Shown here: piece after piece, positions 10,942-59,573 of the stretch | Numbering within the stretch: the first letter of the stretch is position 1 | How the letters are laid out: every line of letters begins with the position of its first letter | Origin: Folioceros fuciformis | Lineage: Eukaryota | NCBI GenBank assembly: GCA_049999805.1 | Contig: JBNGIO010005900.1 | Coordinates: 1 to 64,000 of the forward strand | Length of the DNA: 64,000 bases | Reading direction: 5' to 3' | Notes under the pieces: generated by a model | Told to the model about the DNA's origin: nothing | What the model saw: only the letters and a program-made list of their open reading frames with translations | Database searches by the model: none | Position numbers and translations under genes: made by a program

Positions 10942-13314
10942 TTATGCAGGGGAACGCCTTGGCTTGCATGTTTCCCTTACTTCAGCCAGAAGGTGTGTTT
11001 CCATGAGGTCCCATGCGAGCTGGGATCCTTGTTCGCTGAGGTGTATCCAGCTATCTGAGCTTCCCGTGCAGCTGAGCCCCTTGGCGTTCATGGCCTTGGA
11101 GAGGAGGAGGATATCCTTCGAGCTGTACCCGGGGGTGTGGAACCGGATGTGTCCAGTCCTGGGATCACTGAGCATGTACCAGTAGGCTAATGCTCGAGGA
11201 GTTAGCCAGCGATGGATGAGCCTTGGAACAGCTGCTTTCCCACCGGGTCTGTACTGGGATGCGAAGAATCGAAGGGATGGGTGGCTGATGGTTAGAAACT
11301 GAAGCAGGCTGGGATAAGTACCATCTGGAGGTGGTGAATGGGTCCATCCGCCGAAGATGGCTTCCAGGTTCTGCAGGAGGCTTACCGCTACAGAGTTGGT
11401 TGGATCAAGACATAGTCTGACATGGAAGGTTAGGCCGGAATCGTCAGTACCCATGTGAGCCCCACCAAGCAATAAACCCACCAGTGCTTCTCTTCGGCAC
11501 GTGTCGAGAGTCAGGTCATGTGCTGCTGCTGGAGGCAATGCTTCGGATGAGGTGGTTGGAGAGGAGAATGCAGCTGTCACCACGTCTCTGTTCTGAGATT
11601 CGACCTCACAATGCCTGTTCATGACAGACAACACCTCCTTCACCTTGCTCAAGTTACCTTCTGTTCCATAGCCTTGAAGCATGAGGTTGTACGTCTGTTG
11701 ATTGGGGTGATAGCTGTTCAGCATGAACTCGAACACCTGCTCTGCTTGTTTTAGGAGTCCAGCTCTGATATAGGATTCGATGAGCGTGTTGTAGGACTCA
11801 CGGTTGGGACGGCACTGTTGTCCCTGCATCTGATCAAATGTTAGCTTGACCTTGTCGAAAGCCCCCATCTTGAGGTACATACCCATGATGGCGTTGTACG
11901 CAGGTAGCAATGGTGTCATGCCACTGGAGCGTAGACAGTCTAGAAACTCGAGGGCACAAGTTTCTTCGCCTGCGTCTGCCGTACTCTGAAGAACAACCAA
12001 GTAAGCTTTATAGCTAGGATCCATCCCCTTGCTCACCATGTCTTGAAATGTCTGATGAACTTTCCAGGGGAATCCAGCCCTTCCGTATGTCTTCATAGCC
12101 TGCAGATAAGCGGGCCCGTCGGGCTGCAGGCCAGCTTTAACCATGTCACGCCACGCTCTATCAGCACTTTCCACATCTCCTTCCTTGGCGCAGAGCTGCA
12201 AGATAGACGTAAACCCTGCTAAACCCAGTTTGAGTTGATTCCTCTCCATTTTCGCAACCACAGACCACAGCTGCCTCCTGTTTCCCATCCTGCCGTGGAT
12301 CCGCATTAGGGCTTCACACATCTCTGTGCTGAAGGGGTGCCCCGAGTTGACAATGTGGTGGAACACGACATCAGCATGGTCACCAAACTCAGCGACATCA
12401 TCAGCCATGCACACCAGGGCAGAGAAGAGCTTGTTCTGAACTGTCAACGGCGGATCATAGCCACCCACAAGAGTCATCTGGTTGTACACACTCCAGGCCT
12501 CCCTGACAGATGCCTCCTGCCCTTCCTTGATGTAAGCAACAATCACGGATGAGAAGGTAGCTGCATCAGGTGGATTCCCACTGCGCACGATAACGTCCAG
12601 AAGGTCGTGTGCCTTGCTTGCCTTCCTATCCAGAGCCAGCGAATTCGCTACCCGTGTTGTCAACCCGTACTCAAACTCGTACCAAGGCTGAGCATGTGCC
12701 CATTTGTAAACCTGTAACCCCAACAGATCACTAACTCTCAGCTCCAACTTCCTGGAACCCAAGCATCAATGACCAGGGACGATAAACAAGACCAAGGTCA
12801 AGCCGATACGTACATGGTAGCAGCAAACGAATTCCCGGAGGAACAAAAGTTGCTCCATCACCTTCTGCGCATCCACCCACTTGATCCATTTCCTCTGGTC
12901 CTTGAGCAGGCCAGCAATCTCACGCCCTCTCCGCACGGGCAGCTCCTTGCACAGCCACCCTATCCTCTTCCTTCTCCAGACCTCCTTGCTGGGGGCATCT
13001 GCCTGGTGCCCAGTATAGTAGGTGGTGGCCTTGTTTGACAACGGCATCCGGGGACCTAACAAGACGGGATCTACCTTTATCCAAGAATGGCAATCCAACC
13101 CTTGCTCCCCATCCCCTGTACCTGTACAAACCACAAGCACGGGGTGCCATGGGCTGCATAGCTTTCGCCCTCTGCCAGCTGATGCTCGGTGGAATCCCGA
13201 TCTCCACGAGAAAGCGGCAGCTGATGCTGGGAGGAATCCCGATCTCCACGAGACAGCGGCGCCCCACGCAGGCGACCTGCCGACCGTCGAGGTCACGCAC
13301 CTCTGCTCCCACAT
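10942..13314 (-). CDS. OTP51: P-class PPR protein with C-terminal LAGLIDADG-like domain (organellar intron splicing factor); 2 exons, intron 12712-12813
   Basis: N-terminal WLCKELP and YKWAHAQPWYEFEY segments, about 9 P-type PPR repeats, and C-terminal REALVGLLLGG...PRLIHRWLTPRALAYWYM as in OTP51. A GT-AG intron joins ORFs 12766..13314 and 10942..12762 in frame. Confidence 0.9.
13176..13260. repeat. Two-copy ~42-bp tandem repeat in the OTP51 N-terminal coding region
   Basis: cagctgatgct-gg--ggaatcccgatctccacgaga occurs twice and encodes WRSGFLPASAAAFS / WRSGFHRASAG on the minus strand. Confidence 0.85.
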
Positions 13315-16281: not shown

Positions 16282-18893
16282 ATGGCGCCCAAGGCAAAGC
16301 ACAAAGCTCTGGCCCCGGCGAAAGGGGCATCTGCTACGGATCTCAATACACCACCTTCAGCGCCGCAGGGACCGACCGTGGATGATCTCATAGCTGTCCT
16401 GGATAGACATGTAAAATTCAGGGACGACAAGGAGGCCCTGAAGCAGGCCCTGCAGGTTTCAGAGCAGAGTATCCTCCATGGATTGAGTGATCCATGGCGA
16501 TGTTGCATATTGAATGTCTTCGATGCAGCGGGAGATATTGTACTGTGGTCGGGCGTGAGGGTTTGTGTGATTTGTTGCTTGTGGAGTTCCTTGACCTATT
16601 CGCAGTTTTGGCATTGGATCCTAAGGATCCTGAGGCGATAAGATGCAAGGTTGTAGCTCTTGTGCAGCTGGAGAAGTTCAAAGAAGCGTTGTTAACCATC
16701 GGAGTCAACCAGGCACGAGAAAGTTTGTTTTTCTTCGAAAAGGTTGGTGGATTTGCTCGTTTGTCTGGTATTGTTAGGCGTTATGGATTTTGCAGATCCA
16801 AAGAGCTCTGGCTTTGTCGTTAATACGGTGGGGATGCTGCTTGTGTCAGGCGTATTGTCTGTACAAAGAGAACAGGATGCAGCAGGCACTTAATGCTTTG
16901 AAGACCGGTGACCAGACTGCAGCTGCCATTCAGTTGGAAGCTCAGATTCATCACAAAATGGGTGATTTTGCTGCTTGCATCAGCAGTTATGAGAAGCTGT
17001 TCCACAAGCACAAAGTCGACGCAGATGAAGTGAAGACCAATCTTGTGGCAGCTTATGTGTCTGGTGGGAGATCAAGCGAGGTCCCTGCACTCATGGACAG
17101 TTTGAAAGTGACTCCCAAGACTAGCTTTGACTTGGCATACAATGGTGCATGTTCGTTGATAGAAATGAGGGAGTTTGTGAAAGCAGAAGAGCTGCTTCTT
17201 CTGGCGCGAAGGTGGGTGGGGGCGGTTGCATTTGCTACCCCTGTCTTAATAGTATGAGGAGCAAGTTATCAGTTCACTGATTGTGAGTAAGCGCTGTCTA
17301 CAGGATTGGTCAGGAAATGTTGATCGAGGATGATTACACGGAGCAACAGATAGTTGAAGAGCTAGCTCCCATTGCTGTGCAGCTTGCCTATGTGCAACAG
17401 GTACGAGCTGTGGCTGAATAGGATCCATGTTTTGTCTGCCTTTTTCCAGTCGTGAACCATGGATGAAAATCAACCCTTGAATTTTTTGATTTGGACAGAT
17501 GCAAGGGCGGGCAGCAGAAGCAATGGCAAGCTACAGTGCTTTGTTGAAGCAGAAACCAGATGATGTACCGTCTTTGGCTGTAGCGTCTAATAACTTGATA
17601 GCACTGAGGGGAGCAAAGGAGCTCTTCGATTCTTTGAAGAAGTTTGACAAGATAATTGCAAAGAAAGGGGGACAGTTCGTGGATAATTTGGACCATAAGC
17701 TTTCCGCTCGACAAAAGGAAGCAATGAGCTTCAACCGGTTTCTTCTGCTCCTGTACTCGAGCAAATTTGATCAGGTGACGTCACTCTCTGAGTCGTAGCT
17801 TCTACCGTTGTCAAGAGTAGAAGAACTTATGACGCTGACTAGTGCAACATGTTTCTCGCAGGCACGTGAACTTGTGCCGCTGCTCCAGGAAACCTTTCCG
17901 AACAGTGTAATGCCAACTCTGCTTGCAGGGTCAATGTATCTGAAGGAGGGGAAACCTGGAAAGGCAGAAGAAATCCTAGGGCAATATGTTGACGCCCATC
18001 CTAGTGGTTCAACCGAAGCACTTCTTGTACGTGCTCAAGCAGCAGCTGCTGCAGGCCAGTATCAACGTGCTGTTGAATCCCTGGAAAAGATAGGGGAGTT
18101 AAAGCACATGCCAGGAGTAGTTGCTACTCTAGTCTCCCTCAAAGAGCGAGTGGGGGACGTGAAGGGTGCAGAAGCGGTTCTGGACGCAGCTGTACAGCAC
18201 TGGCAGAACAGCATGCTGAACGAATCCGGTACGTACGAGACAGTCCTTCTGGAAGCAGCAGCAGAGTTCAAGCTAAAGCACAACAACTTGAAGGGTGCTG
18301 CCATTCTGTTTCAGCAACTGGCCAAGAGCCCATCCCCAGTGGCTCGTTCAAAAGCTTTACATGGGCTGATCTGCAGCACAGCTCACTTGAATCCAGCAGA
18401 AGCTGAAGGTTATGCAGCTGAGCTTCCACCACTGCCTGGCTTGTCGGCGCTGGATATAACAACATTGGAGCAGACGGCGAGTGCCACTCCCATGGCAAGC
18501 AAGCACGCTCGGGCTGGGGAAGACGGTTCAACGATCATAGTTGAGGACAAGGCCGACAGAAGCAGACCTAAAAAGAAGCGGAAGAGAAAGCCTCTGTACC
18601 CCAAGGGTTTCGATCCTGCGAATCCAGGCCCACCCCCTGACCCGGAAAGATGGCTGCCAAGGAGAGAGAGGTCCACTTACAAGCCGAAGAAGAAAGACAA
18701 GAGGAGCGCCCAGATAAGAGGTGCCCAGGGGGCTGTGAGCAAGGACAGCAAGGCCTCGGAGCTCAACGTCGGTAGTGGGAAGCAGGTGGGGGCAGGGTCT
18801 GGCAAGCTGTCAGCCGCTTCCAGTTCTGTGCAAGCAGCGGAAGCGTCCCGGCCTCCGTCGCAGAGGAGCAGCAAGAAGAAGGGTCGTCGATGA
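16282..18893 (+). CDS. SRP72: Signal recognition particle subunit SRP72; multi-exon
   Basis: TPR-like N-terminal exons (AYCLYKENR, LEAQIHHKMGDF, FDLAYNGACSLIE, ELAPIAVQLAYVQQ) and the C-terminal SRP RNA-binding motif YPKGFDPANPGPPPDPERWLPRRERSTYKPKKKDKR. Confidence 0.95.
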
Positions 18894-22896: not shown

Positions 22897-25791
22897 TTAA
22901 GGTCGACCCATGCAACTGCAACAACCAGCTGCAAATCGGTGCACACGGTGTCCATCCCGCACAACAATGTCTCTCTTTTCAAGCCTGGACATGATCTCTG
23001 TGGAACTGTGGCAGTCACCGCACATGCGGAGATTCTTCGTTACCACCAGAGGTGTGCCACTTGGAGTGTTCAAAAGACCAAACGCCAAAGCTAGCTTCTC
23101 AGCATGCCCGCACAGATCATCTTCCTTTTCCTTCTCAGATAGTGGCTTTAGCACCAACTGTGTGTGTGGCACGTGGCCCCCTTCCTGCTTCAGACGTGCG
23201 TTCACGCTCTCCACCTTGAGAGCAAGGTCATCTCTGTTTTCACCCACCACAAATGTGTGCACCTGCTGGTTCACTTCAATGCCTGCCACTGCAGGTTTCT
23301 TGTTAGCTCCTGCTGCCATTCTCTGTGCTTCAATCCTGTCTACGTGGGTCCACATTCCTGCATTGGCGTAGGCATTGGCCATGAGTACATAAGCGGATGC
23401 ACCTTGAGGCTCCAATCTAACAAGACTCTTGAAACAACGCTTTGCCATCTCGATGTTTCCGTAACATTTGCATGCATTCAGCAAAGATGTCAACCCAACA
23501 ACATTGCATTGACTCTCACATGATAACAGCATCCTCTCTGCATCGTCTAAATGGCCAGCACGCCCAAGAAGATCCACCATGCAATTGTAATGCTCCACTG
23601 TGGGTTTGATGTGATGCTGTTCAACCATGGAATCGAAGTACTTACGCCCCTCGGTAACCAGTCCCTCGTGACTGCATGCCACTAAAAGGCAAGAAAAAGT
23701 AGCCTCATCAGGCTGGATCCCGGCAGCTAACATCTCCTCAAACCGAGCTAGTGCCTTCTGACCTTCGTTGCAAGAACCACACCCAGCTATCAGCGCATTC
23801 CATGTGACCACATTCTTTGTGGCCAGGCTGTCGAAAACACAGCATGCCTCACCCAGTTCACCACACTTTGCATACATGTCCACCAGGCAAGTGCCCACGA
23901 CAACGTTATCCAGCTGTCCTCTCTCTACAATCTGTGAGTGCAGCTGCCTACCCTTCTGTAAGGCGCCAGCGCTTCCACAGGCCTTCAGAAGGCACGCAAG
24001 AGTAACATGGTTACCCAAAACCAGGCCCTCTTGCTCCATTTGTCCATGCAGAACAAGCGCCTTGTGGCCGAGCCCATGATTTGCATACCCAGCTATGAGG
24101 GCCGTCCATGTCACCACATCTTTCGTGCCCAGGCTATCAAAAACCCTGCGTGCATCTTCCAGTTCGCCACATTTCGCATACATGTCTACGAGGCAGTTGC
24201 CCACCAATGTGTTCTTTAATAGTCCTCTTTCCACTATCTGAGAATGCAGCTGTCTACCCTTCTGTAAGTCACAAGTGCTTGCACACGCACTCAGAAGGGA
24301 AGCAAATGTAACATGGTCAGGCACAACCAGGCGTTCCTGCTCCATTTTTCCATACAGATCGAGCGCCTCTTGGCTGAGCCCTTTCTGAGCATACCCAGCA
24401 ATCAGGATATTCCATGTCACTACATCCTTTGTAGCTAAGCTGTCAAAAACATGACGGGAATCTTGAAGTTCTCCACACTTTGCATACATGTCCACCAGGC
24501 CGTTGCCCACAAGTATGTTACCTAGCTGTCCTCTTTTCCAAATATGAGAATGCAGCTCCCTGCCTTCCTGTAAGGCACCGGCACTTGCACAGGCCTTCAG
24601 GAGGCAAGCGAAAGTAACATGGTTTCCCACAATCAGGCCCTCCTGCTCAATTTGTCCATACAGACTAAGAGCGTCTGTGGCGAGCCCATGATTTGCATAC
24701 CCAGCTATAAGGGCATTCAAGGTCACCACATCCTTTGTGGGCAGGCTGTCAAAAACCCTGCGTGCAGTGCCCAGGTCTCCACATTTTGCGTACATGTCCA
24801 CCAGGGAGTTGGCTACAAACAAGCTAGGAGGAATGCCACTGCGCAACACATCCCCGTGAATCTCTCTGCCAGATTCCACTTCCGCAGCAAGTGCACAAGC
24901 TTGAAGGGCTGCAACGAAGACGTGAGCATCTGCTTTCACACCTGAGCCACGCATCTCACGGTATAGTTGTATGGCCTGCATAGGCTTCCCATGTTTGGCA
25001 TGTGCGGATATTATCGAGACCCACATGAAAACATCGGGTTTGCCCACCCTGGTGAACACATCCATGGCCTCCTCTAGCCTACCGCCACCTGCATACACGC
25101 GTAAGATATGGTTCCCCAAGAACGTATCTTCCTCATACCCAAGTTTGATGGCGAGATCATGAACTCGTCGACCCACACCCATATCCTTCTTAGCTGCACA
25201 CAGCTTTAGCACAGCATAAAGCAGGGACTGAGAAATAGGACAGCCCGTCTGCGCCAGAGACTCCATAGCTCCAACAGCCTCAGTAAGCTTTCCCTGATCA
25301 CATAACGTACTCACGGTGATGGCAGTTACAACCCCCATTTCCCACCCTGCACTACCAGGCTCATGCTTATCCGGCGAGCTCGCCTCGACATGACCCATCT
25401 GCATATCCAAAGACACGAGCTGCTCATCCACCCAAGGTGGTTTGGACATGCTGTTTAACCAGAGGACCTCGCCGGACCCCTTTCGCCGGAAGTCAGGCGT
25501 TCGAGAGTTTTTCTTGCCTCGCCTGTTATCCCACCACATGGCTGGGTCTAGAAACAATTGTCGCCACAAGAGCTCCTGCTCCTGCTGGCAACCTGGACCA
25601 TCGTTGGAAAATACTTCCCCAGCCATAAACCTGCTCGGAAGTGCTGGGCTCCCTACACTACTGCACCTGTCTTGGCTCTTTGCATGCGGTTGACTCCCTA
25701 AGGTGAGGTGAGAAGAACCTCCTGGTCGAATTCCTGTACAGCCACCAACATGCTGGGTCCACAGACCTTCCGGTTGCCACACGGTTGCCAT
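22897..25791 (-). CDS. PLS-class PPR protein with E1/E2 and DYW:KP deaminase-like domain ending in GRP (candidate organellar U-to-C RNA editing factor), with an N-terminal OSB-type PDF motif; intronless CDS
   Basis: P-L-S triplets; KKPAVAGIEV in place of the PG box; GHAEKLALAFGL; KNLRMCGDCH; HRFAAGCCSCMGRP*. N-terminal LWRQLFLDPAMWWDNRRGKKNSRTPDFRRKGSGEVLWL. Start placed at the first ATG (MATVWQ), which follows an acceptor-like ttttttcaag. Confidence 0.93.
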   Translation of the reverse strand: MATVWQPEGLWTQHVGGCTGIRPGGSSHLTLGSQPHAKSQDRCSSVGSPALPSRFMAGEVFSNDGPGCQQEQELLWRQLFLDPAMWWDNRRGKKNSRTPDFRRKGSGEVLWLNSMSKPPWVDEQLVSLDMQMGHVEASSPDKHEPGSAGWEMGVVTAITVSTLCDQGKLTEAVGAMESLAQTGCPISQSLLYAVLKLCAAKKDMGVGRRVHDLAIKLGYEEDTFLGNHILRVYAGGGRLEEAMDVFTRVGKPDVFMWVSIISAHAKHGKPMQAIQLYREMRGSGVKADAHVFVAALQACALAAEVESGREIHGDVLRSGIPPSLFVANSLVDMYAKCGDLGTARRVFDSLPTKDVVTLNALIAGYANHGLATDALSLYGQIEQEGLIVGNHVTFACLLKACASAGALQEGRELHSHIWKRGQLGNILVGNGLVDMYAKCGELQDSRHVFDSLATKDVVTWNILIAGYAQKGLSQEALDLYGKMEQERLVVPDHVTFASLLSACASTCDLQKGRQLHSQIVERGLLKNTLVGNCLVDMYAKCGELEDARRVFDSLGTKDVVTWTALIAGYANHGLGHKALVLHGQMEQEGLVLGNHVTLACLLKACGSAGALQKGRQLHSQIVERGQLDNVVVGTCLVDMYAKCGELGEACCVFDSLATKNVVTWNALIAGCGSCNEGQKALARFEEMLAAGIQPDEATFSCLLVACSHEGLVTEGRKYFDSMVEQHHIKPTVEHYNCMVDLLGRAGHLDDAERMLLSCESQCNVVGLTSLLNACKCYGNIEMAKRCFKSLVRLEPQGASAYVLMANAYANAGMWTHVDRIEAQRMAAGANKKPAVAGIEVNQQVHTFVVGENRDDLALKVESVNARLKQEGGHVPHTQLVLKPLSEKEKEDDLCGHAEKLALAFGLLNTPSGTPLVVTKNLRMCGDCHSSTEIMSRLEKRDIVVRDGHRVHRFAAGCCSCMGRP

Positions 25792-26853
25792 CTTCAGGCA
25801 CGGTTCTTGAAAAAAGAGACACACAATAAACTATGCAGGCCGTGGCCGCAAGGCCACGAACATACCGTGCATCATCACACCACCCTTCGCAAGGGCATTG
25901 CACATTCTTCGTTTGGCTGAAGCCTCTGAAGCATCTAATTCGCAAGACCAGAAGCCACCTTTACTCAGAAGGTTTTCACACGGGAAGGAAAAAAGGAGAC
26001 GGGTGACCCCATCTGATTAAGGACATCAGACGGAGAAGGGCATCAAAAAAGGCATGGCCATCCAAGGCAGATGCACATGAAACGGAGACACCCCAAGGCC
26101 TAAGGTCGTAGTAAAGAAGAGCAATTACGCTCGTCTAAAATCACCTACTACACTCACCATATCGTTAACGAGGAAGATTGAATGGCCTAATCTTTGTCCG
26201 GCAGTCCGTGCTCTGCATAAGACCGCTATTTTACGGGCTATGGCGGCTGATTCCGTGCTGGCAGGCGTCTCGAGACTCCTGGGGTTCGGCTGACGATGTG
26301 AATTCCGTGGTCGGTGGTGAAGCCAAGCAGCCACCAAAACTGCTGCATGACCATGATGAAGTCATCCGTTACACCGGTTACTTATACACATAAATGCGAA
26401 GCCTCATACAATACTGACCGCCATCTTCCGGTTTCCCAGTCACACATGCATGTATGCCCATCATGTGGCATCCATACCAAGTTGCGGATGCATGAGCATC
26501 CGGGACCGAGCTTTTGCGATCCATGAACAGATGGCTCTCACAAGGGATGGGTCTGACATCCGTGGATGGGGAGCTGGCCATGATGGTTTGGTCGATTATG
26601 CCATGGCCGGAGACCGGGAACCGGACGGGCCGGTGGCTCTCGCACGCCTCGCATTTACTGTGTGATCAAACCTCGTTCGTTGGTTTGTTACAGCCGTTTG
26701 CGATGCTTGGTGTAGCATGGCTTGGAGTAGCATTTAGCCTGCTGGTGTGTGTGCGCATGTTGTTGCTTTCGCTGATCAGTTCTCAAAGCTTGGCGAGGAG
26801 TAAGCTTAGCAAGGAGTTGTTCCTGGACGTTTCTTCAATTTTGGGTGTAAGGT

Positions 26854-29800
26854 ATGGCTACCATGGTGACCACTCGCAAAGTGTTCGTGGAGGAGCTGAG
26901 AAGAGTGAAGTTCAGCATCGGAGCTTGTGAACGAAATCCCCTGGCAGAAGACTACAACGAGGCCATAAAACAGCTCTCTGTGGCTTTGTATCAAAAGGAT
27001 ATCCACTTCATATCGGAGTTGATACAGGTACAACGATCGGCCACTTGGCATCACAATTCCATGTTGAGTTCCTCTCAGGGTAGATGACGGGAGGCTTTAT
27101 ATGATGTGTGCAGAATGCGGAAGATAATGCTTATCCCGCTCAATCAAAGCCGGCATTGGAGCTGGTTCTAACCAAGACCGATGTCACTGGGCTTGGTGCT
27201 TCAGCTACATTGTGCCTGTTCAACAATGAAAAGGGTTTTGAGGAATCCAACATCAAGGCCATTTGTGGCGTTGGAGCGTCCACGAAGAAGGGCAAAAGAA
27301 AAAGTGGTTACATTGGAGAAAAGGGTGATGCCTCTGCAGTTCGCAGCTTACGACGTGCATCATAAGTCTATTTGTTGACGGTCCTGTGTGTCTCCTGCTC
27401 CTCAAGCCTAGACCGCCTGAACCCTGATTCAGTCCCGCCCGTGCTGTGCTTCCTGCAAGTATAGGATTCAAGAGCGTCTTTCTTGTGACGCAAACCCTAC
27501 ATATCATCAGTAATGGATACCGCATCCGTTTTGACGAGCGTCCCCACCCAGAAGCCGGTGTAGGCTATGTGGTGCCAGAATGGACCCCAACTCCTACGAA
27601 CTCGGACCTCAGAAACGTGTACCATGGTGGTGTTGTCTTACCCACCACGGTTTTGGTGTTGCCATTGAAGGACACCAAAGTGCAGGCTGTGCAGTTACAG
27701 CTGCAACAGATATCCCCGGAGACAATCCTCTTTATTAAGCACCTGAGCAAAATAAGCATCAGGAATGAGTTTGATGCGACTCGAGGACAAGATGAATTCA
27801 TGATCACCCGGCAGGACGGGCCCATCTGGGTCTCCCATGGTCTGCCATTGCAGACAATAACCGCCGCGCTGTCTGTGCAGAAAGGCAGCCAAGTCGTAAA
27901 GTCTGGGAAGTATTTTCTCTACCGGGAATCATTTCCTGTCGAAAAGCAGGCTGTAGTGGAAAGCAGAAGAGGGGTTGATTCATGGACGGTGACTCTGGCC
28001 TTCCCTTGCCTGCATCGCATTGTTGTGGAAGGTTTGGCTCAATCTGGAGATGTGTTTGCTTTCTTACCCACTGAGCTGAGATCCAAATTGCCCTTCCTAG
28101 TAAATGCGGATTTTCTGCTTGTGGATTCCCGGGAGACCATGCTCTTCGACAGTCCATGGAATCAGGGAATCTTAGGCTGCATTCCGAGAGCTTTCGTCAG
28201 GGCTTTCGATATCCTGTTGCAAAAAAATACGCTTCATCGAGACGCAGTGCCTCCCTTGGAAGTGGAGGATGCATATAGTTTCGTTCCTGTTCAAGCGTCC
28301 CCTGTTCCTGCACTGGAGACTGCCAGATCATCCATCGTGCGAGAACTTCGCGATGGGGAATTCGTCTTATGCTCGCAGTATGCTGGTTCTAGCGGCGGGC
28401 AACTGTTCTGCAAAGGTTCCGCTGCTCGAATGATACATCAGGATTTCCGTAGCATTTTGGAGCTCTCAGACGAAGAGAGTTTATCCGGGTTTTTTATCAC
28501 GGGGAAGTAGGACCTTGTTCATTGTGAATGAGTCTGTGCAAGACAAGTATGCGGCTGCTTTGATCGACATGAGTGTGACGCACATGTCGCACTACGAGTA
28601 TGCTTTGTGCATTTCCTCTCCAGGTTGGCTGGAGAAGCTCAGCACCAGCCTCTACCTTGACGTTTTGGGTTACATTGCTGATCACCTGGGTTCTTGTACA
28701 TCACCCACTGGAGCGTTGTATAAGATTCCCCTGCTCCGTTGTCAACAGAAACCAGGAGACACAGTTCAACTAGTATCCTTGGACGAACAGAATATGACAA
28801 GAACAGGAACTCAGAGGAAGATTTTCAGATCGGATACACGCGTTGAAAGCTTGTTGAGCAAGTGGACCGATTGTTTTGCTTTGTGGACAAGACTTTACTT
28901 CTTGCCCGCAGACGTGGTGCATGCTCTAAGCGATCGCAGATACGAGAATATAAACTGCTGGTTCCGCAGCACAGCAAACTTGAGAGAGCTTACGGTTTCC
29001 CAGTTTGCTCAGCAGCTAATAGCGTCAGCGAAACAAAATTGCAGCCCACATCTGGTGCTGCTCTTGACCGGTCTCCTGTGTTATTGTATTGCAGCTGGCC
29101 AGCTTTCCGCCCAAGAAGTGATGTCATGTGCAGAGGGTACGCTACCCGCGGTTGACAGGCATGGACTTGTCAAGCTAGTGAGTAGCTCACAAGTCGTTGC
29201 TCAGCCTCATCTAGGTAGCAAGTGGCCTGAGCTTATAGTGGATGATTCGTGGAGTTCTCACATGCTGGTGCTATCGGATGACGCTTCAATCCTGACAAGA
29301 CAAATGTATCTTCCTCTGAATCCATGAAGCAGTTCCTGCAAAGCATGCTTCATGCTGAAGATCTTCCGCAATTGCCGATAGCTAATTTACGACTGCCAGA
29401 TATATCCAGAACATTGGTGGAGAGGAGCTCTGCCTGCCTTTTGTTTGAATGGATAGGTACTCATACATACAGAAGCTTGCCCAACGCGTTTCTCGCAAGT
29501 ATCCAATCTTGGCCATGGGTGAAGACAGTTTATCATGGACGTAGATGTGCAACTTTCTGCATTTTGAATGGCGGGCAAGACGACATGCTTTTGAGTTCTG
29601 ATGTTCCAATGGTGAGTTGTGCTGAATACGGGACTGAGCTATCAATGTTTCGTAAATCTCTTGAAGCAATTGGGATAGCAGTGGGAAATGCAGAGAAAGC
29701 CAGAGTGATAGTCAAATATTTAAAGAAACTCCCCCATTCTTCTGAATATGTACTCGATCTGGGTGTCGCTACCAGGTTATACACTTGTCTGCGAATGTGG

Positions 29801-30928
29801 AAATGGAATCCGGCGTCAAAGGATGATGCCCTACAAATGATATGGGTTCCCCCTGGAAGGTGGATAGCGGTGCAGAGTTGCACAATCGCTGACCCCAGCC
29901 GCTTGTTTACAAAGTTTGTGTCAGTTCTTGGTGAAATCTACACAGATGCAGAGCTCCTTACCTTCTTTCAAACGGTTCTACGTGTCCCCAAAGTGCCGAC
30001 GGTGCAGCGTCACTGCGAGCTCTGGCTTACGATTTCTCAAACCCGCGATAACATAACCGGCAGTCATGTTGAGACTGTGTGGCGTGCAATCACCGACTCC
30101 TGGGATAGATGCGAGTCAGGGGTCCGTGAGACTTTCCTGCAAAGTGCTCGAGTTCCCTTTGTATACGCTGGAAAGATTGCAGGACCTTACTTGGACCTTG
30201 CGCCTGAGGGTGAAGCTTTCTTGCCAGATAGCTTGGAACTAGTTCATGCTTTTTCGAAGGGGGAAAATGAGCGTCCAAAGGTAGTCTGGATTCCCAGATG
30301 TTCAGCAACTCTGAACAGGGGCAATCTGTACCAGCTCTACTCCAGGATGGGTGTGCGCAGCCTGCGCGACAGTGTTAAATCAAAGATCTCTTCCCCGCTA
30401 ACAGGTGGTCCATTGCGAAACAGGGTTACCAAAGGGCAGGTCCTGGTGACCAAGAGTCTTACTTCAGGAGTTCTAGCATTTTTGTCCCAGGCAGAGCTTC
30501 AACTCAATGTATCTAGGAGGCATCAGATGTTGACGTCTTTGGTTGAAGTACAAGAGTACGAGATGAAGTCCCCCCATCATCTTGAGCATGTACTACAGTG
30601 TGGGACAAAGAAGAGTAATACGGCTTCCCAAGACAATATGGTTCACTGGAACGGTTCAGCAGAGCTTTGCTACCTGAATCAGAAGAAGGTGAAGAATCTG
30701 AACCTGCCAGATCATCTCCTATACGCAAGCCAACTTGTGAAGGCGTTGGCTTATGGTGTAGCTGGGGAATGTCCTCATGTGGCACAGGAATTACAAGAAT
30801 TTCTCCTAATCTTGTACCACAGTGGCAAATTTCAACAGGATGCTGTGGACTATTGGCTTCGCCATAAGAACATAGAGATCTTCCAAGAAGATGAGGCCTT
30901 CTTGCTAGAAATCTCCAAACAACTCTGA
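26854..30928 (+). pseudogene. Sacsin/NO VEIN-like GHKL-ATPase (ATP/DNA-binding) gene with two frameshifts (pseudogene or assembly errors)
   Basis: LYQKDIHFISELIQ|NAEDNAY, FNNEKGF, ICGVGASTKKG...YIGEKG|IGFKSVF, VFAFLP...LPFLVNADFLL. The frame changes at a T6 run (~28490) and again at ~29282, with no intron signals at either site. Confidence 0.8.
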
Positions 30929-45109: not shown

Positions 45110-46030
45110 ATCCGCTCGTGATCAGAAGTCATTTCCACTAGTGATCAGAAGTCATTTCCACTAGTGATCTTAAGTGTCTAAGTGTCGTGCTGTGGTGCTA
45201 AACATCACACTCATGCATGGTTCATTAGTTAACAATACTCACACCACACCACATTACACACACATTAAACACCGCATGATGGTGTTGCAATTCTATAAAA
45301 GTGAAGTGTTTGCTTCCTTCAGACACCACATCCACACTTCTTAGAGCTACAACTTGGCTTCTTAAATCCTCGATCAAGTCATATAATCTTGCACATTGCG
45401 CACACGCACACCTCAACCGGATTTCCAACAAGAGAATGTTCCCCCAAGAGAAAGCCTATTCCCCAGAAAGCAAGAGAATACAAGCTTATTCCAACAAGAG
45501 AATGCTCCCTCAAGACAAAGCCTATTCCCAGAAAGCAAGAGAATACAAGCTTATAGCTACAGCTAATACTGTTGAGCTAAGCTTTTATGCCTACTACCTC
45601 AGACCTATTGCACCCACATTCACACATATAGTTGTGTGTCTATCTAGTTGACTTTATATTCTATTTTCTAATCATCTCCACTAAATTATTATTAATTACC
45701 ACTAATTCCATTTATTAGCATCACTTAATTATTAATTAATTACTATTTGCATATATCTAAGAGACAACACACAATCATATTTGACACAAGTCTTACCCTA
45801 CTCTTGATCTCAAGTCTTGCTAAGTCGTGTCCGCTAATAATCTCAAGTCCTACTGTGCTCTTGATCTCAAGTCTTGCTAAGTCATATCCACTAGTGATCT
45901 CCNNNNNNNNNNCTACTCTTGATGTCACATCTTGCTAAGTTGTGTCTACTAGTGATCTCTAGTTGTACCTTGCTCTTGATCTCAAGTCTTGGGATCTCAA
46001 GTTCTGCCCCACTCTTGATCTCAAGTCTTG
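45110..46030. repeat. Cluster of short direct and tandem repeats in AT-rich, TE-like DNA (includes a 10-N gap)
   Basis: gtgatcagaagtcatttccacta twice (45118-45165); a ~66-bp duplication at 45422-45553; ctcttgatctcaagtcttg repeated across 45800-46030. Confidence 0.85.
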
Positions 46031-47399: not shown

Positions 47400-48375
47400 G
47401 GAGTTAGCTAAGGTTGACAAGGTATGCCATGACCCATTTAAAGCGCGTCTCAAGCGGTGTCTCATGTTGGGCAGGGATGGTGAATATGCTCGGGCTGCTA
47501 GAGCATTGCACCCAGAGCCGGCTGCATCCGCAACTAAGGACGCCATTGCTGCACTTCGTGCCCTTCATCCAGAACCTCATGACACTATACTGCAAGATCT
47601 TCTTGACCACGCAGTTGAGGAGCCTTTTTGCTTGGATAGGGTTGTTTTTGGGCATGTACTCTCTTCTGCACCGTGATAGTTTATGACCATTTTCAAGATT
47701 GTTTTTCTCCTGAGGATCCCTCAAGTGGTTTTTCGGGGCTTTATACACTAGCAACTGCTGTGGCTAGGGGTGAAGGTTGCAATCGAATCTCTCAAGTTTT
47801 GGCGGCTAGTAGGCTACTTGCATTGGAAAAGCCCACCTCAGGAGTGAGCCCCATTGATGTGGGGGAGGTATTTTTGCGCCTTATCGGCCGAAGTATCGCA
47901 ATTCAACTTCGGGAGTACTTCCAAGCGCATCTTGCACCCCACCAATTTGGGATTGTTACCCCAGGTGGGTGTGAATCTGCCACTCTCGGCATCCAGGCGG
48001 GCCCTAAGTTACATCCTCACTAGGTAGCTTTGCAGGTTGATATTGAGAATGCTTTTAACACCGTCTCTAGGGTCGCCATCTTCTCGGAGCTCAAGAGTGC
48101 ATGAGGTCAATTGGCAAGTCTTATCCCTTTTGTTTGGTTCTTCTTTGGCNNNNNNNNNNNNNNNNNNNNNNNNNNNNNNNNNNNNNNNNNNNNNNNNNNN
48201 NNNNNNNNNNNNNNNNNNNNNNNNNNNNNNNNNNNNNNNNNNNNNNNNNTTCTATGGCTCGACATCCAAGCTCTACTACCAACACGACCCAACTATTGAG
48301 GGGGCCTGAGTTTTCGATTCAGCAACAAGCACAAGGCAAGGGGATCTGCTGGGGGGTGCTCTTTTTGCTCTTATA
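47400..48375 (+). mobile_element. Degenerate non-LTR retrotransposon reverse-transcriptase relic, CRE/R2-like early-branching clade
   Basis: GEYARAARAL...LRALHP; RLLALEKPTSGVSPIDVGEVFLRL; LAPHQFGIVTPGGCE; LQVDIENAFNTVSR; FYGSTSKLYY; TRQGDLLGGALFAL. Contains stops, frameshifts and a 100-N gap. Confidence 0.82.
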
Positions 48376-49227: not shown

Positions 49228-50931
49228 TTATTCACCTCGTGGTGGGGCTAGAATTCTGGCCAGGGTGCCTTGGGCAAAAGAAATGGAGTCTATGGCGGTC
49301 TTGGCGAACCAGCTAAGTCCGACTTTCAACTTGTGCTCATTGGTCGGAAGCCGATACAAGTAGGCCAGTTTCCTAGCTGAATGGCCAATTACGCCATCAA
49401 GCGTCAGACCATTTGGAAAGCTCGGTGTCACTGCTGCATCATACTTGCCGAGGGTCATCATCTCGCCTAGATGTGTGTATTTGAACGCACGGAGTGGTCT
49501 GTCGTTGATTGCGGCCCACAGATTCCACCCCGCGTATTCAGCTTGTTGGAAGGCCACCTGGGCAGTTGTAGGCAGCAGGTTTCCCGAGCTGTCCTTGGCA
49601 CCGGCTGAGTCTCCGATGGCAAAGACCCGAGGATGACCCTTCACCCTCAATGTACTGTCCGTGTCCGCTTGACCTCGGCCATTCACAGGAAAAGAAGGCC
49701 GGGTTTCGACGTCTCCAGGTGGAACAAGAGCTTTGGTGCCCACCGTCCAGAGAACCAGATCAGCATGTAGCTTCCGCTCCTCCCCCGGGCCCTCCTCCTT
49801 GGTGCTTTTTAGGTTAAGCACAACGGATCCTGGACTAGATTTTGTGCCGTTATGTGCTGCACTACTGCTGATACTGGTCACAGAGTAACCGAGAACGAGC
49901 TCCACATTCCTCGAAGACAGAATCTTCAAAGCTGCTTCTCGATTTCCAGCAGGTGCTGAAGGGCAGACGGTCAGGCCATTGTCTACCACCTGAACCCTTC
50001 CTCGGGGCCCCAGACGCTGGGCCACAGTAGCTGCTAGCTCCACTCCCGTGTAACCAGACCCCACGACCACAACACTGATGGGTAGTTTACCGACTCCAAA
50101 TCTCTCCCTTTCAAGTACCAGGAGCCGCTCATCCACCTTAAGAGCATCCTCCAGAGTGGAAAATGGCACTGCATGCTCCCGGGCTCCCGGAACAAAGCTC
50201 ATCTTCGTCTCAGCCCCCAGTGCAAGCAGCAACCAGTCATACTCAATCTGCGTTCCACTCTCCAGGACCACAGTACCTCCAATACCTCTCAGCGCGCGCT
50301 GACCCATAGCAGCGTCACAGGGTGTCACATTCTTCACCGTGTCCTGCACAAATTGAATGCTCGTTCCAGCCAACAGTTCCGAAAACCTTGGGGCAATCTC
50401 CCACTGATCCACTTCCTTCGACAAGAGCTCGTACAGCAAGGGCTTGAAAACGAACCTGTCCGACTGGTCAACAAGCAGCACCTGCGGCCGCTTGTTCGAA
50501 GGCCAAACCAGAGACTCCAGTTGCAGTGCCGTGTACAGGCCTCCAAAACCCCCACCCAGAATGCAGATTCGCGGTCTCTTGGAGTCTGTCCACCTGTAGC
50601 TAGATTGTGTACCCTCGTCAGCTCCAAAACGTGCGCCATTGGACCCTTGATCAATGTCCAATGCAGATGAGGAAACAGAGGCCCGCGGCCTCCCAAAAGC
50701 GTCCACAACCACTTTCTGCCTGCTCCAGAGGCTCTGATACTCGGGTAATTTCCACCACCCTGTCGAGGCACAGCATGCGCTCATGGACCATGTCCCCGTT
50801 ATCACCCTTTCTTTGGAAGCACAAAACCCTGTCCACTCCCGAGACAAGCTCCCGCCAGAGGCAGTCGGGAAGGGACTGGGGCGCAGACTTGCGCGAATGC
50901 TGGGAGCCATCGCGCAGGCCGGTGCCGCCAT
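49228..50931 (-). CDS. NDC1: Type II NAD(P)H dehydrogenase C1 (plastid/mitochondrial, cyanobacterial type); intronless
   Basis: RPRICILGGGFGGLYTALQLESL; DRFVFKPLLYELL; second Rossmann fold VVVGSGYTGVELAATV; VFAIGDSA; PTTAQVAFQQAEYAGWNLWA; HLGEMMTLG; RKLAYLYRLPT. Ser/Ala-rich transit peptide. Start at 50931 or 50943. Confidence 0.93.
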   Translation of the reverse strand: MAAPACAMAPSIRASLRPSPFPTASGGSLSREWTGFCASKERVITGTWSMSACCASTGWWKLPEYQSLWSRQKVVVDAFGRPRASVSSSALDIDQGSNGARFGADEGTQSSYRWTDSKRPRICILGGGFGGLYTALQLESLVWPSNKRPQVLLVDQSDRFVFKPLLYELLSKEVDQWEIAPRFSELLAGTSIQFVQDTVKNVTPCDAAMGQRALRGIGGTVVLESGTQIEYDWLLLALGAETKMSFVPGAREHAVPFSTLEDALKVDERLLVLERERFGVGKLPISVVVVGSGYTGVELAATVAQRLGPRGRVQVVDNGLTVCPSAPAGNREAALKILSSRNVELVLGYSVTSISSSAAHNGTKSSPGSVVLNLKSTKEEGPGEERKLHADLVLWTVGTKALVPPGDVETRPSFPVNGRGQADTDSTLRVKGHPRVFAIGDSAGAKDSSGNLLPTTAQVAFQQAEYAGWNLWAAINDRPLRAFKYTHLGEMMTLGKYDAAVTPSFPNGLTLDGVIGHSARKLAYLYRLPTNEHKLKVGLSWFAKTAIDSISFAQGTLARILAPPRGE

Positions 50932-51249
50932 GTTGCAACTCATCACCCACTCCCGCAAAACCTAAAACCTCATTCAGCTGCATGGAGATAATTTCCCCAA
51001 CAATCCCTCATTGCAACGAGTCAGGAAATGTCAACTGGAGAGACAGGCAGTGCCCCCTCACATCCCACGCAGCAAGTAGCTGCGATCCTAACGTGGCGGA
51101 CCGACCACGATGCCAGTCCCAACTCATCTCAAGCTGCGCTATACTTCTATTGTAGGAATTGGAATGGCATCGTTCTAGGAGTAGCAAGAGGTTCTAAACG
51201 CACACCAAATGCAAGGCTCACATGCCTCGTTGCTGGCCACACAAAATTG

Positions 51250-53750: not shown

Positions 53751-55397
53751 TCAGTACTCGGTTTCCATGAGCCCATCAATAAGTCCAAACTCCATCGCCT
53801 GCCATCACGGGATCACTTACATGAGCCACAAGCAACAAATGCGAGATGCGCACTTTCTGTTGCCGACAAGGACAAAATTGCATCTTATATGGCCAGTCAG
53901 GCAAACCTCTGCTGCTGAAAAAAAGCGGTCACGGTCAGTGAACTTCTGTACTCTCTCAAGAGGCTGTCCAGTGAAGGCAGAATACATCTTGTCTATCTTC
54001 TGCAGAAGACAAGGAGGGGGTGAGAAATGAGAATGACAGGCAACTATCCAACTCCACTGGCAACAGATATACGCCAAGGAACACGTACGTCACGTGATGC
54101 CATCACTTCATTAACCTGCCGGCGCACATCATCCAGTGTCCCCTGCGTACAGCAATACAAGGCAAATCCAGCTGAGCTCGGGCTAAGGCAGATCATCCCC
54201 AGGACCATGGGTTCAACAAATTCCTCCCAAAACACTGTACACTGCTTCAACTGTCAACTGAATGCAAAGCTGCTCCTAGCGCCAGAAGAAAGGGGAAAGC
54301 GGCAAGGAGGTACCCCACATCCGCCTTGAGGTTGATGGATCATTATTCGGGCATTGGGCATGGCAAAGCGTTTGCCCTTTTGGCCTCCTGCAAGAAGCAG
54401 TGCACCTTGACTGGCAGCAACTCCAAAACAGACTGTGCTCACGTCGGGCTTGATCTGCACAGCACAGACCACATTAGACTAGCCGTCATCCTACCAGACT
54501 CTATTACACAACTTCCAAACAAGTAAGCATTAGTCTTGTCTCTGTTGTCTTACCCAGGACATGGTGTCGTAGATAGCCAACACCGAGTACGTGCTCCCCC
54601 CGGGACAGTTAATGTACATCTGTGACAGCCACACGCACACCGGATGAGAGCAGCATCATGGATATTAAACCAGCAACGGGAAGCTAGCACATAGAAAACA
54701 CAGAATCATCCAGAACATGAAAAACACCCACTTTGATATCCTCTTCCTCATCAATGGCCGCCAGGGTCAGCAGCTGAGTGATGACCTTCTGAGCAACCTG
54801 TGAATTCACAGCCGAGCCCAGAAAAATAATTCGATTGCGGAACAACAAGGTGGACAAGTCAGTGGGCCCCGTGCCCGTGAGCACGGCAGGCATGATAGGA
54901 GGAGCTTTCTGCTTGGCTGCCCTGATATCATTCATGCTGCTACCGCACAGACAAGGGAAACAGGCAACAGCCTCCTCGTCAGATCCAAATCCAATGCCCA
55001 AACATCCCCAGTACGACAGAACGACAATACCCACCCACCTCGCGCTGCCTATGCCAAGCGACGGCCTTGAATCTGCGACGCAAAGCCGTTCTCTCCTCGA
55101 CATCCCCCGTGCAGCCACACCCGGCCTCGCGACTGCAAGCGCCGNNNNNNNNNNNNNNNNNNNNNNNNNNNNNNNNNNNNNNNNNNNNNNNNNNNNNNNN
55201 NNNNNNNNNNNNNNNNNNNNNNNNNNNNNNNNNNNNNNNNNNNNCGACATCCCCCGTGCAGCCACACCCGGCCTCGCGACTGCAAGCGCCGTCTGCCCTG
55301 CTTGCCCCACCCCATTCCTGAAGCTGCAGAGCTCCGGAGCCCGCACCTGCTCTCGTACGACAGCCACCGCCGCGGGCAGCGCGGGAACACAAGCCAT
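53751..55397 (-). CDS. CLPP6: Chloroplast ATP-dependent Clp protease proteolytic subunit 6; multi-exon; exon 1 spans an N gap
   Basis: [99 protein letters not shown]. Confidence 0.94.
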
Positions 55398-55531
55398 CTC
55401 AATTGCCTCCTGTTGAAGACAACGCGCAATTTAGCACAAAAGTTTCCTTCTCTTATTTTTCTTTCGCTGAACCCTGAACAACTGCTTGCCGGATTTTGAC
55501 GACCTCCTCAGCATCAGCTGGATTTCCGGCT

Positions 55532-56542
55532 ATGGCGGACTGCAGCAAGGGATCTTTCACCAGGCCCCGGGGCCAAAGCGAGCCAACGCCGCATCTGTAC
55601 GCAGCAAACTGCGGGCCGGCTACTGGCGTCTCCCTCGCCGCCGTTGCCGACGCCTTTTCTCAACACGGGCCGGTGCAGAGCGTGGCGGCTGCAGACGGAA
55701 GCGGGGGGCGGTCAATTGTCTCGTTCTTTTCCGCGGAGTCGGCCGCTGCCGCGCGTAAGGCGTGGCATGGACGCCCTTGTCCCGCGCTGCAGGGCCGCGT
55801 CATGATCCTGGAGTTTGCGGAGCCCGTAGTGGTGCGGGAGCAGGTGCAGCTGCCAGTGTGCCGACACGCGGAGGAAGTCGGGATCTCGGGCCTGTTCCTC
55901 CGCCTGGAATTCGTGTCCGAGCAGGAGGAGGCGGATCTAATGGCTGCCGTGGACGCGCGGCCGTGGCAGGGTTTGGCCAAGCGGCGCGTGCAGCACTACG
56001 GCTTCGAGTTCTTGTACAAGGTCCGGAACGTGGATTTGGATGCGCGGCTGGGGGACATGCCGGAGTTTGTGCTGGGATTGCTGGAGCGGATGCTAGGGCT
56101 AGAGGAGCTGGCGGCCACAGAGGAGGAGGTAGGATTTCCCTTGGATCAGCTCACTGTGAACGAGTATCCTCGGGGCGTGGGACTGTCCCCGCATGTCGAC
56201 ACGCATTCTGCATTTCAAGGCGCTATTCTATCCCTATCCCTAGCCGGTCCTTGCGTGATGGAGTTCCGGAAGTACGGCAGGCGGGATGGTGAAGGTGGAG
56301 ATGATGTGCAGCGCCGGGCGCTCTTCCTGCCTGCCAGATCGCTGCTCATCCTGTCTGGGGAAGCTCGTTATGCCTGGCATCACTACATTCCTCACCATAA
56401 ACGAGATTTTGTGAACGGTGTGCCCGTGGACAGAGGTTCCCGGCGGGTTTCGTTCACGTTTCGGAAAGTCCGGGCCGGGCCTTGCCGGTGCCGGTTTCCT
56501 GAGGAGTGTGACTCTCGTCTCACTGCTTTGGGCAGCGCGTAA
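55532..56542 (+). CDS. ALKBH8: ALKBH8-like RRM + AlkB 2OG-Fe(II) dioxygenase (tRNA wobble-uridine hydroxylase); intronless
   Basis: HLYAANCGPATG RRM; KRRVQHYGFEFLY; DQLTVNEYPRGVGLSPHVDTH; ARYAWHHYIPHHK; RRVSFTFRKVR; Zn-binding CRCRFPEECD. Confidence 0.93.
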   Translation: MADCSKGSFTRPRGQSEPTPHLYAANCGPATGVSLAAVADAFSQHGPVQSVAAADGSGGRSIVSFFSAESAAAARKAWHGRPCPALQGRVMILEFAEPVVVREQVQLPVCRHAEEVGISGLFLRLEFVSEQEEADLMAAVDARPWQGLAKRRVQHYGFEFLYKVRNVDLDARLGDMPEFVLGLLERMLGLEELAATEEEVGFPLDQLTVNEYPRGVGLSPHVDTHSAFQGAILSLSLAGPCVMEFRKYGRRDGEGGDDVQRRALFLPARSLLILSGEARYAWHHYIPHHKRDFVNGVPVDRGSRRVSFTFRKVRAGPCRCRFPEECDSRLTALGSA

Positions 56543-59022: not shown

Positions 59023-59573
59023 GATGCTTTCCTGGAAGCCCTGGTCTCCATGTGCAAGCTGTGGTTAGCCGGAATCGGCGTCACTCCCAAGTGACGTGTA
59101 TTCGTGAGCTCATTTTCTTTTCGGCAACATTCTACCTTTACGGTGTCACGCGCTCTTCTTGATGAAGGTGATGGCGAAGAAGGTCTGTGTTTGGACAGAT
59201 AGGCAACTTGAGGTTTGCCAGATCCCAGGGCAAAGCTCCGGGCCAGGCCCTCGGCTTCGCAACGATGGCCGGCCAACGGTGGAGCGGACGGGTGGACTGT
59301 AGATCCATATACGTAGAGGTGGAGAAGAGATCGGCTAAGTGGTAGGACCCATATCCTTCTTGAAGGTGCTCTAGTTTGGTCTGGCACTTGCAGATCTCGA
59401 GTGAGAAGATAATGTGTGGAGTAGGTACAGTGTAGTACTTCACAGTACTCCGCAGGTTTACGATGCTTTATTGCTTTGCGCGGGAAAAGGAAAATTCGGG
59501 GGTTCGAAAACGGGGATCGGAGTCGGGCTTTGCTGGTGAGGACCTGTGAGCGGGGAAAGTGGCGACAGGAGCT

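Follow-up and report, generated by a model that had tools for sequence, protein, structure and literature searches.

Introduction

The organellar single-stranded DNA-binding (OSB) proteins of plants contain the PDF motif, a 50-residue element that binds single-stranded DNA (ssDNA), and the accessible text of the relevant papers states that in AtOSB1 the PDF motif alone suffices for this activity (PMC6963530, PMC4166229, PMC6451138). A different group of proteins, the pentatricopeptide repeat (PPR) proteins of the PLS class, give RNA editing in plant organelles its specificity, and programmable editors for C-to-U and U-to-C conversion are built on them. The DYW:KP domains found in some of these proteins in hornworts are divided into two variants, GRP and DRH, in the accessible part of PMC9478123. 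In this work, a stretch of 64,000 nucleotides (nt) from Folioceros fuciformis (assembly GCA_049999805.1, contig JBNGIO010005900.1, positions 1 to 64,000 of the forward strand) was analyzed and is referred to as the window. The minus strand of the window includes a gene in which the two kinds of elements are found together, with an OSB-type PDF motif located ahead of the PLS array of a DYW:KP protein. Besides the window organism, PPR proteins that include PDF motifs were found in mosses, a liverwort, a lycophyte and ferns.

Results

The amino acid sequence of residues 70-140 encoded by the window gene was compared by phmmer with 1,835,955,588 representative proteins. The similarity was far stronger than expected by chance: 655 proteins matched at E<=1e-3, with 167 of them at E<=1e-10 or better and 18 at E<=1e-30 or better, and many of the matches had 2-13 aligned stretches in one protein. 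A Pfam SSB domain was present in 33 of the best 150 matches (6 of the 24 proteins scanned at E<=1e-3 and 27 of the 126 scanned at E<=1e-5). BLASTP comparison of the window motif with P0118, a protein with the source name 'OSB1, mitochondrial-like', showed 53% identity over 57 residues with no gaps (E 4e-20). When 54 sequences were aligned, the query residues W18, D30, R32, K35 and P60 were invariant and F22, P25, W28, W29, P41, D42, F43, K46, L52, W53 and W62 were conserved in at least 90% of the sequences (the protein numbering is obtained by adding 69). The window motif has every conserved residue of this alignment, and the residues present in the protein are W87, F91, P94, W97, W98, D99, N100, R101, K104, P110-D111-F112, K115, L121, W122, P129, W131 and V132. 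When the window was scanned in all six frames with our own PDF-motif hidden Markov model (HMM), exactly one copy was detected, at 25405-25614 of the minus strand, with a score of 91 bits. The signature residues and the similarity to SSB-bearing and OSB-named proteins identify residues 85-140 as an OSB-type PDF motif. This was the assignment made in the initial annotation of the window, and the peptide quoted in it corresponds to residues 86-136 (nt 25417-25569), at most 3 nt away from the location that it proposed. Two word-index homologue searches, one that compared region 60-135 with proteins of about the same length and one that compared a 71-residue piece with longer proteins, found no match. 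These outcomes are attributed to the sensitivity limit of the method because the exhaustive phmmer search was so productive.

Some of the proteins matched by the motif have unusual compositions or sources. P0047 (Coptis chinensis, 1526 residues) has a kinesin motor domain as well as PDF motifs near residue 190, and P0002 (Kingdonia uniflora, 1160 residues) has 13 matched PDF stretches; either of them could be a gene-model fusion. The P0127 cluster is composed of proteins with SSB and PDF regions, and its 69 members derive from metagenomes, marine ones among them (Tara, ENA, JGI). P0108 was obtained from a set of transcriptomes of marine microbial eukaryotes. It thus seems that PDF-bearing, OSB-like proteins extend past land plants to algae or protists.

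The open reading frame (ORF) that includes the PDF motif spans 22897..25824 of the minus strand and consists of 975 codons with no interruption (Table 1). The frame remains open up to 25824, and an in-frame TAG is located 14 codons upstream of the first ATG; therefore, the protein most likely starts as MATVW. Pfam analysis identified PPR (2e-76), PPR_2 (2.1e-75), E_motif (1.3e-12, residues 788-850) and DYW_deaminase (5.2e-32, residues 883-972), and no Pfam family was matched within the N-terminal 130 residues. The box in the DYW domain reads KKPAVAG in place of the PG box of C-to-U editors, the motifs HAE and CGDCH are present, and the amino acid sequence ends in CSCMGRP. All the sequence features of a PLS-class PPR-DYW:KP protein of the GRP subtype, as this subtype is defined in the accessible text of PMC9478123, were found: the PLS array, the E motif, the DYW domain, the KPAxA-type box, HxE, CxxCH and the terminal GRP. 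The in-frame fusion to the N-terminus of a protein of this type, which had been reported in the initial annotation, was thus evident in the ORF and the Pfam domains. A gene-model artefact was ruled out, as the fusion is contained within one ORF and involves no splicing. Pfam matched no SSB or OB domain anywhere in the 975 residues, and so the protein carries a PDF motif, yet it is not an OSB.

The window was taken as nuclear DNA of a hornwort-like plant because of the GRP-type DYW:KP features, and the neighboring ORFs agree with this view. A nuclear-encoded PLS-E-DYW:KP (GRP-type) protein, presumably targeted to an organelle, is a plausible description of the gene product, to which we give about as much credit as doubt. 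From its sequence the protein is presumed to be a U-to-C RNA-editing factor of the hornwort type. One sequencing run with 71% of the sampled words yielded contigs that match both the gene and intergenic DNA exactly. Because the intergenic DNA was covered too, this run was considered DNA from the same or a very close organism. Two other sequencing runs included related PPR pieces only.

Nine PPR proteins were found among the best 150 matches to the PDF motif. In P0006, a PLS array and an E motif come after three PDF motifs; P0043 has two PDF motifs, and P0125 consists of PDF, PLS, E and DYW regions with GGRP at the C-terminus. The other PPR proteins are P0104, P0114, P0119, P0120, P0124 and P0126. 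The source names of five of the nine are Adiantum capillus-veneris, Ceratopteris richardii and Pteridium aquilinum, and the Pteridium match is a transcript-derived ORF. A whole-protein search supplied a list of 120 PPR homologues, which were then screened using a cut-off of iE<1e-5 (iE, independent E-value) and an HMM built from 443 motif instances, of which the query, also the seed of the HMM, is one. One to three N-terminal PDF motifs were detected in 31 of the 120 proteins, and P0164, with a weak motif (1.2e-4), falls outside this group. A hand count based on source names showed the motif in 18 of the 28 listed homologues from Diphasiastrum complanatum, all four from Calypogeia fissa, one of two from Ceratodon purpureus, two of 14 from Adiantum and none of eight from Ceratopteris, a genus for which carriers do occur among the phmmer motif matches. 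The three JGI-only proteins carry the motif as well, and two of their three clusters have Sphagnum magellanicum members. The motif was found in none of the 17 listed homologues from seed plants (4 Cryptomeria, 12 labelled 'Gb_' and 1 Centaurea). Among 41 PDF-PPR proteins, 36 have one copy of the motif, two have two copies and three have three copies.

The listed homologues were also classified by deaminase type from the box that precedes HxE, for which we used a pattern of our own; nine ambiguous rows were judged by eye. The PDF motif was present in 3 of 12 KP-like proteins, 11 of 33 PG-like proteins and 17 of 75 proteins that have no DYW domain. These numbers ruled out an enrichment of the motif in the KP over the PG type. 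The initial annotation had stated that typical PLS-DYW editors carry no such module and implied a tie to the KP/GRP type. Both ideas had to be abandoned in view of these counts and of two GRP relatives, P0186 and P0202, that have no PDF motif. With these further carriers, the fusion is recurrent. Since PG-type proteins and proteins with no DYW domain carry it too, the PDF module is no add-on to U-to-C editors. Judged by these sequence comparisons, it occurs widely on PLS proteins of land plants other than seed plants.

The relationships among the motifs were analyzed with FastTree (LG+gamma, 54 columns) using 416 distinct near-full-length instances from 421 that passed iE<1e-8. All 45 PPR-linked tips were located inside a single 55-tip clade of the 416-tip tree (support 0.84). 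The PPR label changed 7 times on the tree, whereas 500 shuffles gave 43.3 changes on average and never fewer than 38. The motifs of the window protein and P0125 are sisters (support 0.93) and belong, together with P0259 and PPR motifs from ferns, to a group of 12 tips. Among the 10 tips of the 55-tip clade that are not PPR-linked, two are SSB-bearing proteins, and at least one of the 10 (P0139) is a fragment that clusters with proteins named PPR. Two extra residues before P.WV are common to the PPR-linked motifs and are absent in 64% and 44% of the SSB-linked motifs; the core positions are conserved equally in both groups. On this tree the PPR-linked PDF motifs form a sub-lineage of their own within the OSB-type family. 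The pattern would fit one old fusion in early land plants, which then spread by PPR gene duplication with repeated loss.

The closest PDF-bearing relatives of the window protein are P0167 (59% identity, GGRP), P0125 (53%, GGRP) and P0259 (51%, DRH). Comparison with these three proteins, in this order, showed 31, 36 and 25 identical amino acids out of the 56 residues of the PDF motif, 13, 23 and 9 out of the 73 residues of the presequence, and 5, 5 and 8 out of the 32 residues of the linker. The DYW domain has 66-74 identical residues out of 93. Since it is conserved between two fast-evolving stretches, the PDF motif appears to be kept like a functional domain. A different possibility is that the motif is a dispensable relic, which was inherited and is decaying, is cleaved off together with the presequence or is skipped by the use of a downstream start codon. 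The absence of the motif from close GRP paralogues, the degenerate signatures in two relatives and, according to the accessible text of PMC9478123, the function of designer GRP editors that do not have it speak in favor of this possibility. Nonetheless, all hallmark residues are intact in the window gene, conservation of the motif exceeds that of its flanks by a factor of two to four, and PPR proteins of mosses, liverworts, lycophytes and ferns have retained it. A relic is the explanation that we find hardest to believe.

An AlphaFold2 model generated from the 54-sequence alignment had a predicted local distance difference test (pLDDT) value of 83.9 and a predicted template modeling (pTM) score of 0.69. 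It shows two helices, at positions 8-23 and 62-70, with short strands between them at 28-30 and 43-45 (positions as modelled). The PDF domain is confidently predicted to fold as a small alpha/beta domain of about 55 residues. A phmmer search of PDB sequences gave no matches at E<=10, the best Foldseek result of the model against PDB had an E of 3.3, and VIA-align against 48,161 chains produced a best Z of 3.6 and no chains with Z>=5. The best score in the ESM Atlas, 0.83 (phage gp49-like clusters), is in the chance range and was discarded. The model has no convincing fold relatives among the solved structures, a result that does not in itself show a new fold. The first PPR-like hairpin (LC..G.L..A) was located with our own pattern in 24 of the 41 PDF-PPR proteins. 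In these 24 proteins the last PDF motif is separated from the hairpin by a median of 29 residues (range 17-122), and the separation in the window protein is 36 residues. The central segment of the motif in the window protein, as read from its sequence, is strongly basic.

The other ORFs identified by Pfam in the window code for a PPR-LAGLIDADG protein, SRP72, a Pyr_redox_2 dehydrogenase, a 2OG-Fe(II) oxygenase and FANCI (Table 1). Those of Pyr_redox_2, the oxygenase, FANCI and SRP72 are ordinary plant nuclear genes or exons. The PPR-LAGLIDADG protein has an architecture that we take to be that of the OTP51-type plastid splicing factors, and the HMM scan found no PDF motif in it. Three consecutive long ORFs on the strand opposite to the PPR gene, about 1.6 kb from its start, matched no Pfam family at E<=1e-5 and may together form a single large gene that short introns or frame changes interrupt. 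None of the assembly gaps is near the PPR gene.

Table 1. Location of the PPR gene, its regions and other features in the window
Feature	Position	Strand	Comments
Complete coding sequence	22897..25791	minus	First ATG at 25791, stop codon at 22897-22899; one exon, 964 codons from the ATG
Presequence, presumably organelle-targeting (residues 12-84)	25573..25791	minus	Weak conservation; no Pfam match
PDF motif domain (residues 85-140)	25405..25572	minus	phmmer, HMM, alignment, BLASTP; AlphaFold pLDDT 83.9
Linker (residues 141-172, 32 residues)	25309..25404	minus	Weak conservation; precedes the first PPR-like hairpin, LCDQGKLTEAV
PLS-class PPR array and E motifs (residues 173-882)	23179..25308	minus	Pfam; E_motif at 788-850
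DYW:KP deaminase-like domain (residues 883-975)	22900..23178	minus	KPAVA box, HAE, CGDCH, C-terminal CSCMGRP
P-class PPR with C-terminal LAGLIDADG_2 (5.1e-21)	10942-12762	minus	606-residue ORF
SRP72 exon	17808-18893	plus	
Three consecutive long ORFs	27446-30928	plus	354, 270 and 534 residues
Assembly gap (N run)	45903-45912		10 nt
Assembly gap (N run)	48150-48249		100 nt
Pyr_redox_2 oxidoreductase	49228-50958	minus	Single ORF of 576 residues
Assembly gap (N run)	55145-55244		100 nt
2OG-Fe(II) oxygenase	55496-56542	plus	
FANCI solenoid and helical domains	59559-63818	plus	

Discussion

The DYW domain of these proteins acts immediately 3' of the footprint, and the PPR array reads RNA with its N-terminal repeats oriented toward the 5' end of the site. 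Because the N-terminus of the PPR array faces the 5' end of the target and the tether is about 30 residues long, a PDF domain would be near the RNA located 5' of the footprint. Then, we hypothesize that the PDF domain is an accessory, sequence-unspecific single-strand clamp positioned just 5' of the PPR footprint, an idea for which, on the basis of the sequence comparisons, we see nearly balanced prospects. The folded PDF domain would form the N-terminus of the mature editing factor and, about 30 residues ahead of the first repeat, would hold single-stranded RNA directly 5' of the footprint. The RNA would be gripped without sequence specificity through the conserved aromatic and basic residues, and the clamp would raise the affinity or keep the editing site unfolded. 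We infer that the ligand is RNA, rather than DNA, and likewise that the domain influences editing. Catalysis should not need the PDF domain, since designer GRP-type proteins with no N-terminal PDF module convert U to C in E. coli, as described in the accessible text of PMC9478123. Native moss factors are commonly assayed without their N-termini; for example, PPR56 was cloned with only 14 upstream residues (PMC10482289).

Several observations weigh against this interpretation or its foundations. The 120 homologues were picked by words in common with the first 500 residues of the query, and PDF carriers may be over-represented among them. The PDF motif is absent from the GRP relatives P0186 (57% identity; long N-terminus) and P0202 (56%; starts at the first PPR), and therefore it seems dispensable in near paralogues, although P0202 may be a truncated gene call. 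Degenerate signatures are found in P0125 (CWDIR, RDF) and P0259 (WQDCR). The tree is based on 54 columns and a midpoint root, with weak deep support and with labels that are shared among relatives. For these reasons the clustering of the PPR-linked motifs falls short of proof of a single origin. No RNA run that contains the gene is on record. Finally, AtOSB1 and AtOSB2 favor ssDNA over double-stranded DNA or RNA in the accessible part of PMC4166229, a preference that favors DNA as the ligand over RNA.

The last observation is also at the center of another explanation, in which the PDF domain anchors the editor to organellar ssDNA, for instance in transcription bubbles or in intermediates of replication or recombination, and editing occurs co-transcriptionally, near the nascent RNA. 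PDF motifs bind ssDNA and those of the Arabidopsis proteins are found in OSBs that prefer it to RNA (PMC4166229 and PMC6963530, accessible text). The PPR-linked motifs retain all the residues conserved in OSB motifs and, as in OSBs, they occur in tandem, with up to three copies in PPR proteins. However, a tether of about 30 residues to an array that is bound to RNA would require adjacent DNA and RNA sites, and the separate sub-lineage of the PPR-linked motifs, with its two-residue insertion, permits an altered ligand. We consider such an attachment to the nucleoid unlikely. Still somewhat less probable is a broader version, in which the PDF domain would couple editing to the DNA template and concentrate PLS editors on the nucleoids of bryophytes, lycophytes and ferns. 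In that case, seed plants would have lost the PDF domain at the time when other helper proteins arose. A still bolder version would have the PDF domain enable some DYW enzymes to act on ssDNA.

The PDF domain could instead be a protein-interaction or assembly module that binds no nucleic acid and mediates oligomerization or the recruitment of partners such as an OSB, another PDF-bearing PPR protein or components of the editosome. The numerous conserved tryptophans could build an interface. To our knowledge, some of the lineages that carry PDF domains have no MORF-type helpers. AtOSB2 is reported to be tetrameric in the accessible text of PMC6963530. In contrast, the literature, in the parts accessible, assigns nucleic-acid binding to the motif and is silent on oligomerization through it, and the central segment of the motif in the window protein is strongly basic. 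These considerations leave a pure interaction module with a small share of our expectations, and binding of single-stranded RNA as a clamp is the function that we prefer.

The PDF motif and the PPR-DYW parts are both known, and their combination appears to be unreported. A full-text search of the searchable literature found no paper linking the PDF motif or OSB with PPR or DYW; a prior mention is possible. In the accessible text of a 2026 survey that covers the domain fusions of editing factors across the kingdom (PMC13386178), the fusion is not mentioned and the term 'single-stranded' occurs 0 times. Since Pfam has no PDF model, the PDF-PPR fusion would be hidden from domain surveys that are based on Pfam.

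These findings extend the PDF motif beyond the OSB proteins. Designer proteins and heterologous assays usually omit everything upstream of the first PPR, and a conserved, folded module from an ssDNA-binding family, present on dozens of editing factors in four or more non-seed lineages, would have been overlooked. If the module acts on affinity, unfolding or nucleoid localization, the current views of the native editosomes of early land plants would need revision. The low efficiency of designer GRP editors would perhaps be accounted for in part, and a small portable module would be gained for the design of editors.

Compared to Arabidopsis OSB1-4, the PDF motif of the window protein is alike, with about 50 residues and the same W, P, WWDNR, K, PDF, K, LW and P.WV positions, and one to several tandem copies are found in both OSB and PPR-linked proteins. 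The arrangement is different: the OSB motifs are located C-terminal to an SSB-like OB fold, whereas the window motif is N-terminal to a PPR array in a protein with no OB fold, and the PPR-linked motifs group in their own clade with two extra residues ahead of P.WV. With respect to the hornwort GRP-type DYW:KP proteins, which are candidate U-to-C editors, the window protein likewise has the PLS, E, KPAxA box, HxE, CxxCH and C-terminal GRP features, and the descriptions of that group in the accessible text of PMC9478123 cover the PLS, E and DYW parts only. The designer proteins KP2 and KP3, as described in the same text, have no PDF module, while the window protein and at least P0167 and P0125 (GRP) and P0259 (DRH) carry one. 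PPR-SMR, PPR-LAGLIDADG and PRORP proteins, and the RRM-PPR fusions that are reported in PMC13386178, are similar to the window protein in that a PPR tract is combined with a second nucleic-acid module. The modules of those proteins are modelled in Pfam and are mostly C-terminal or catalytic, whereas the PDF module is N-terminal, has no Pfam model and is absent from the counts of domain-fusion surveys.

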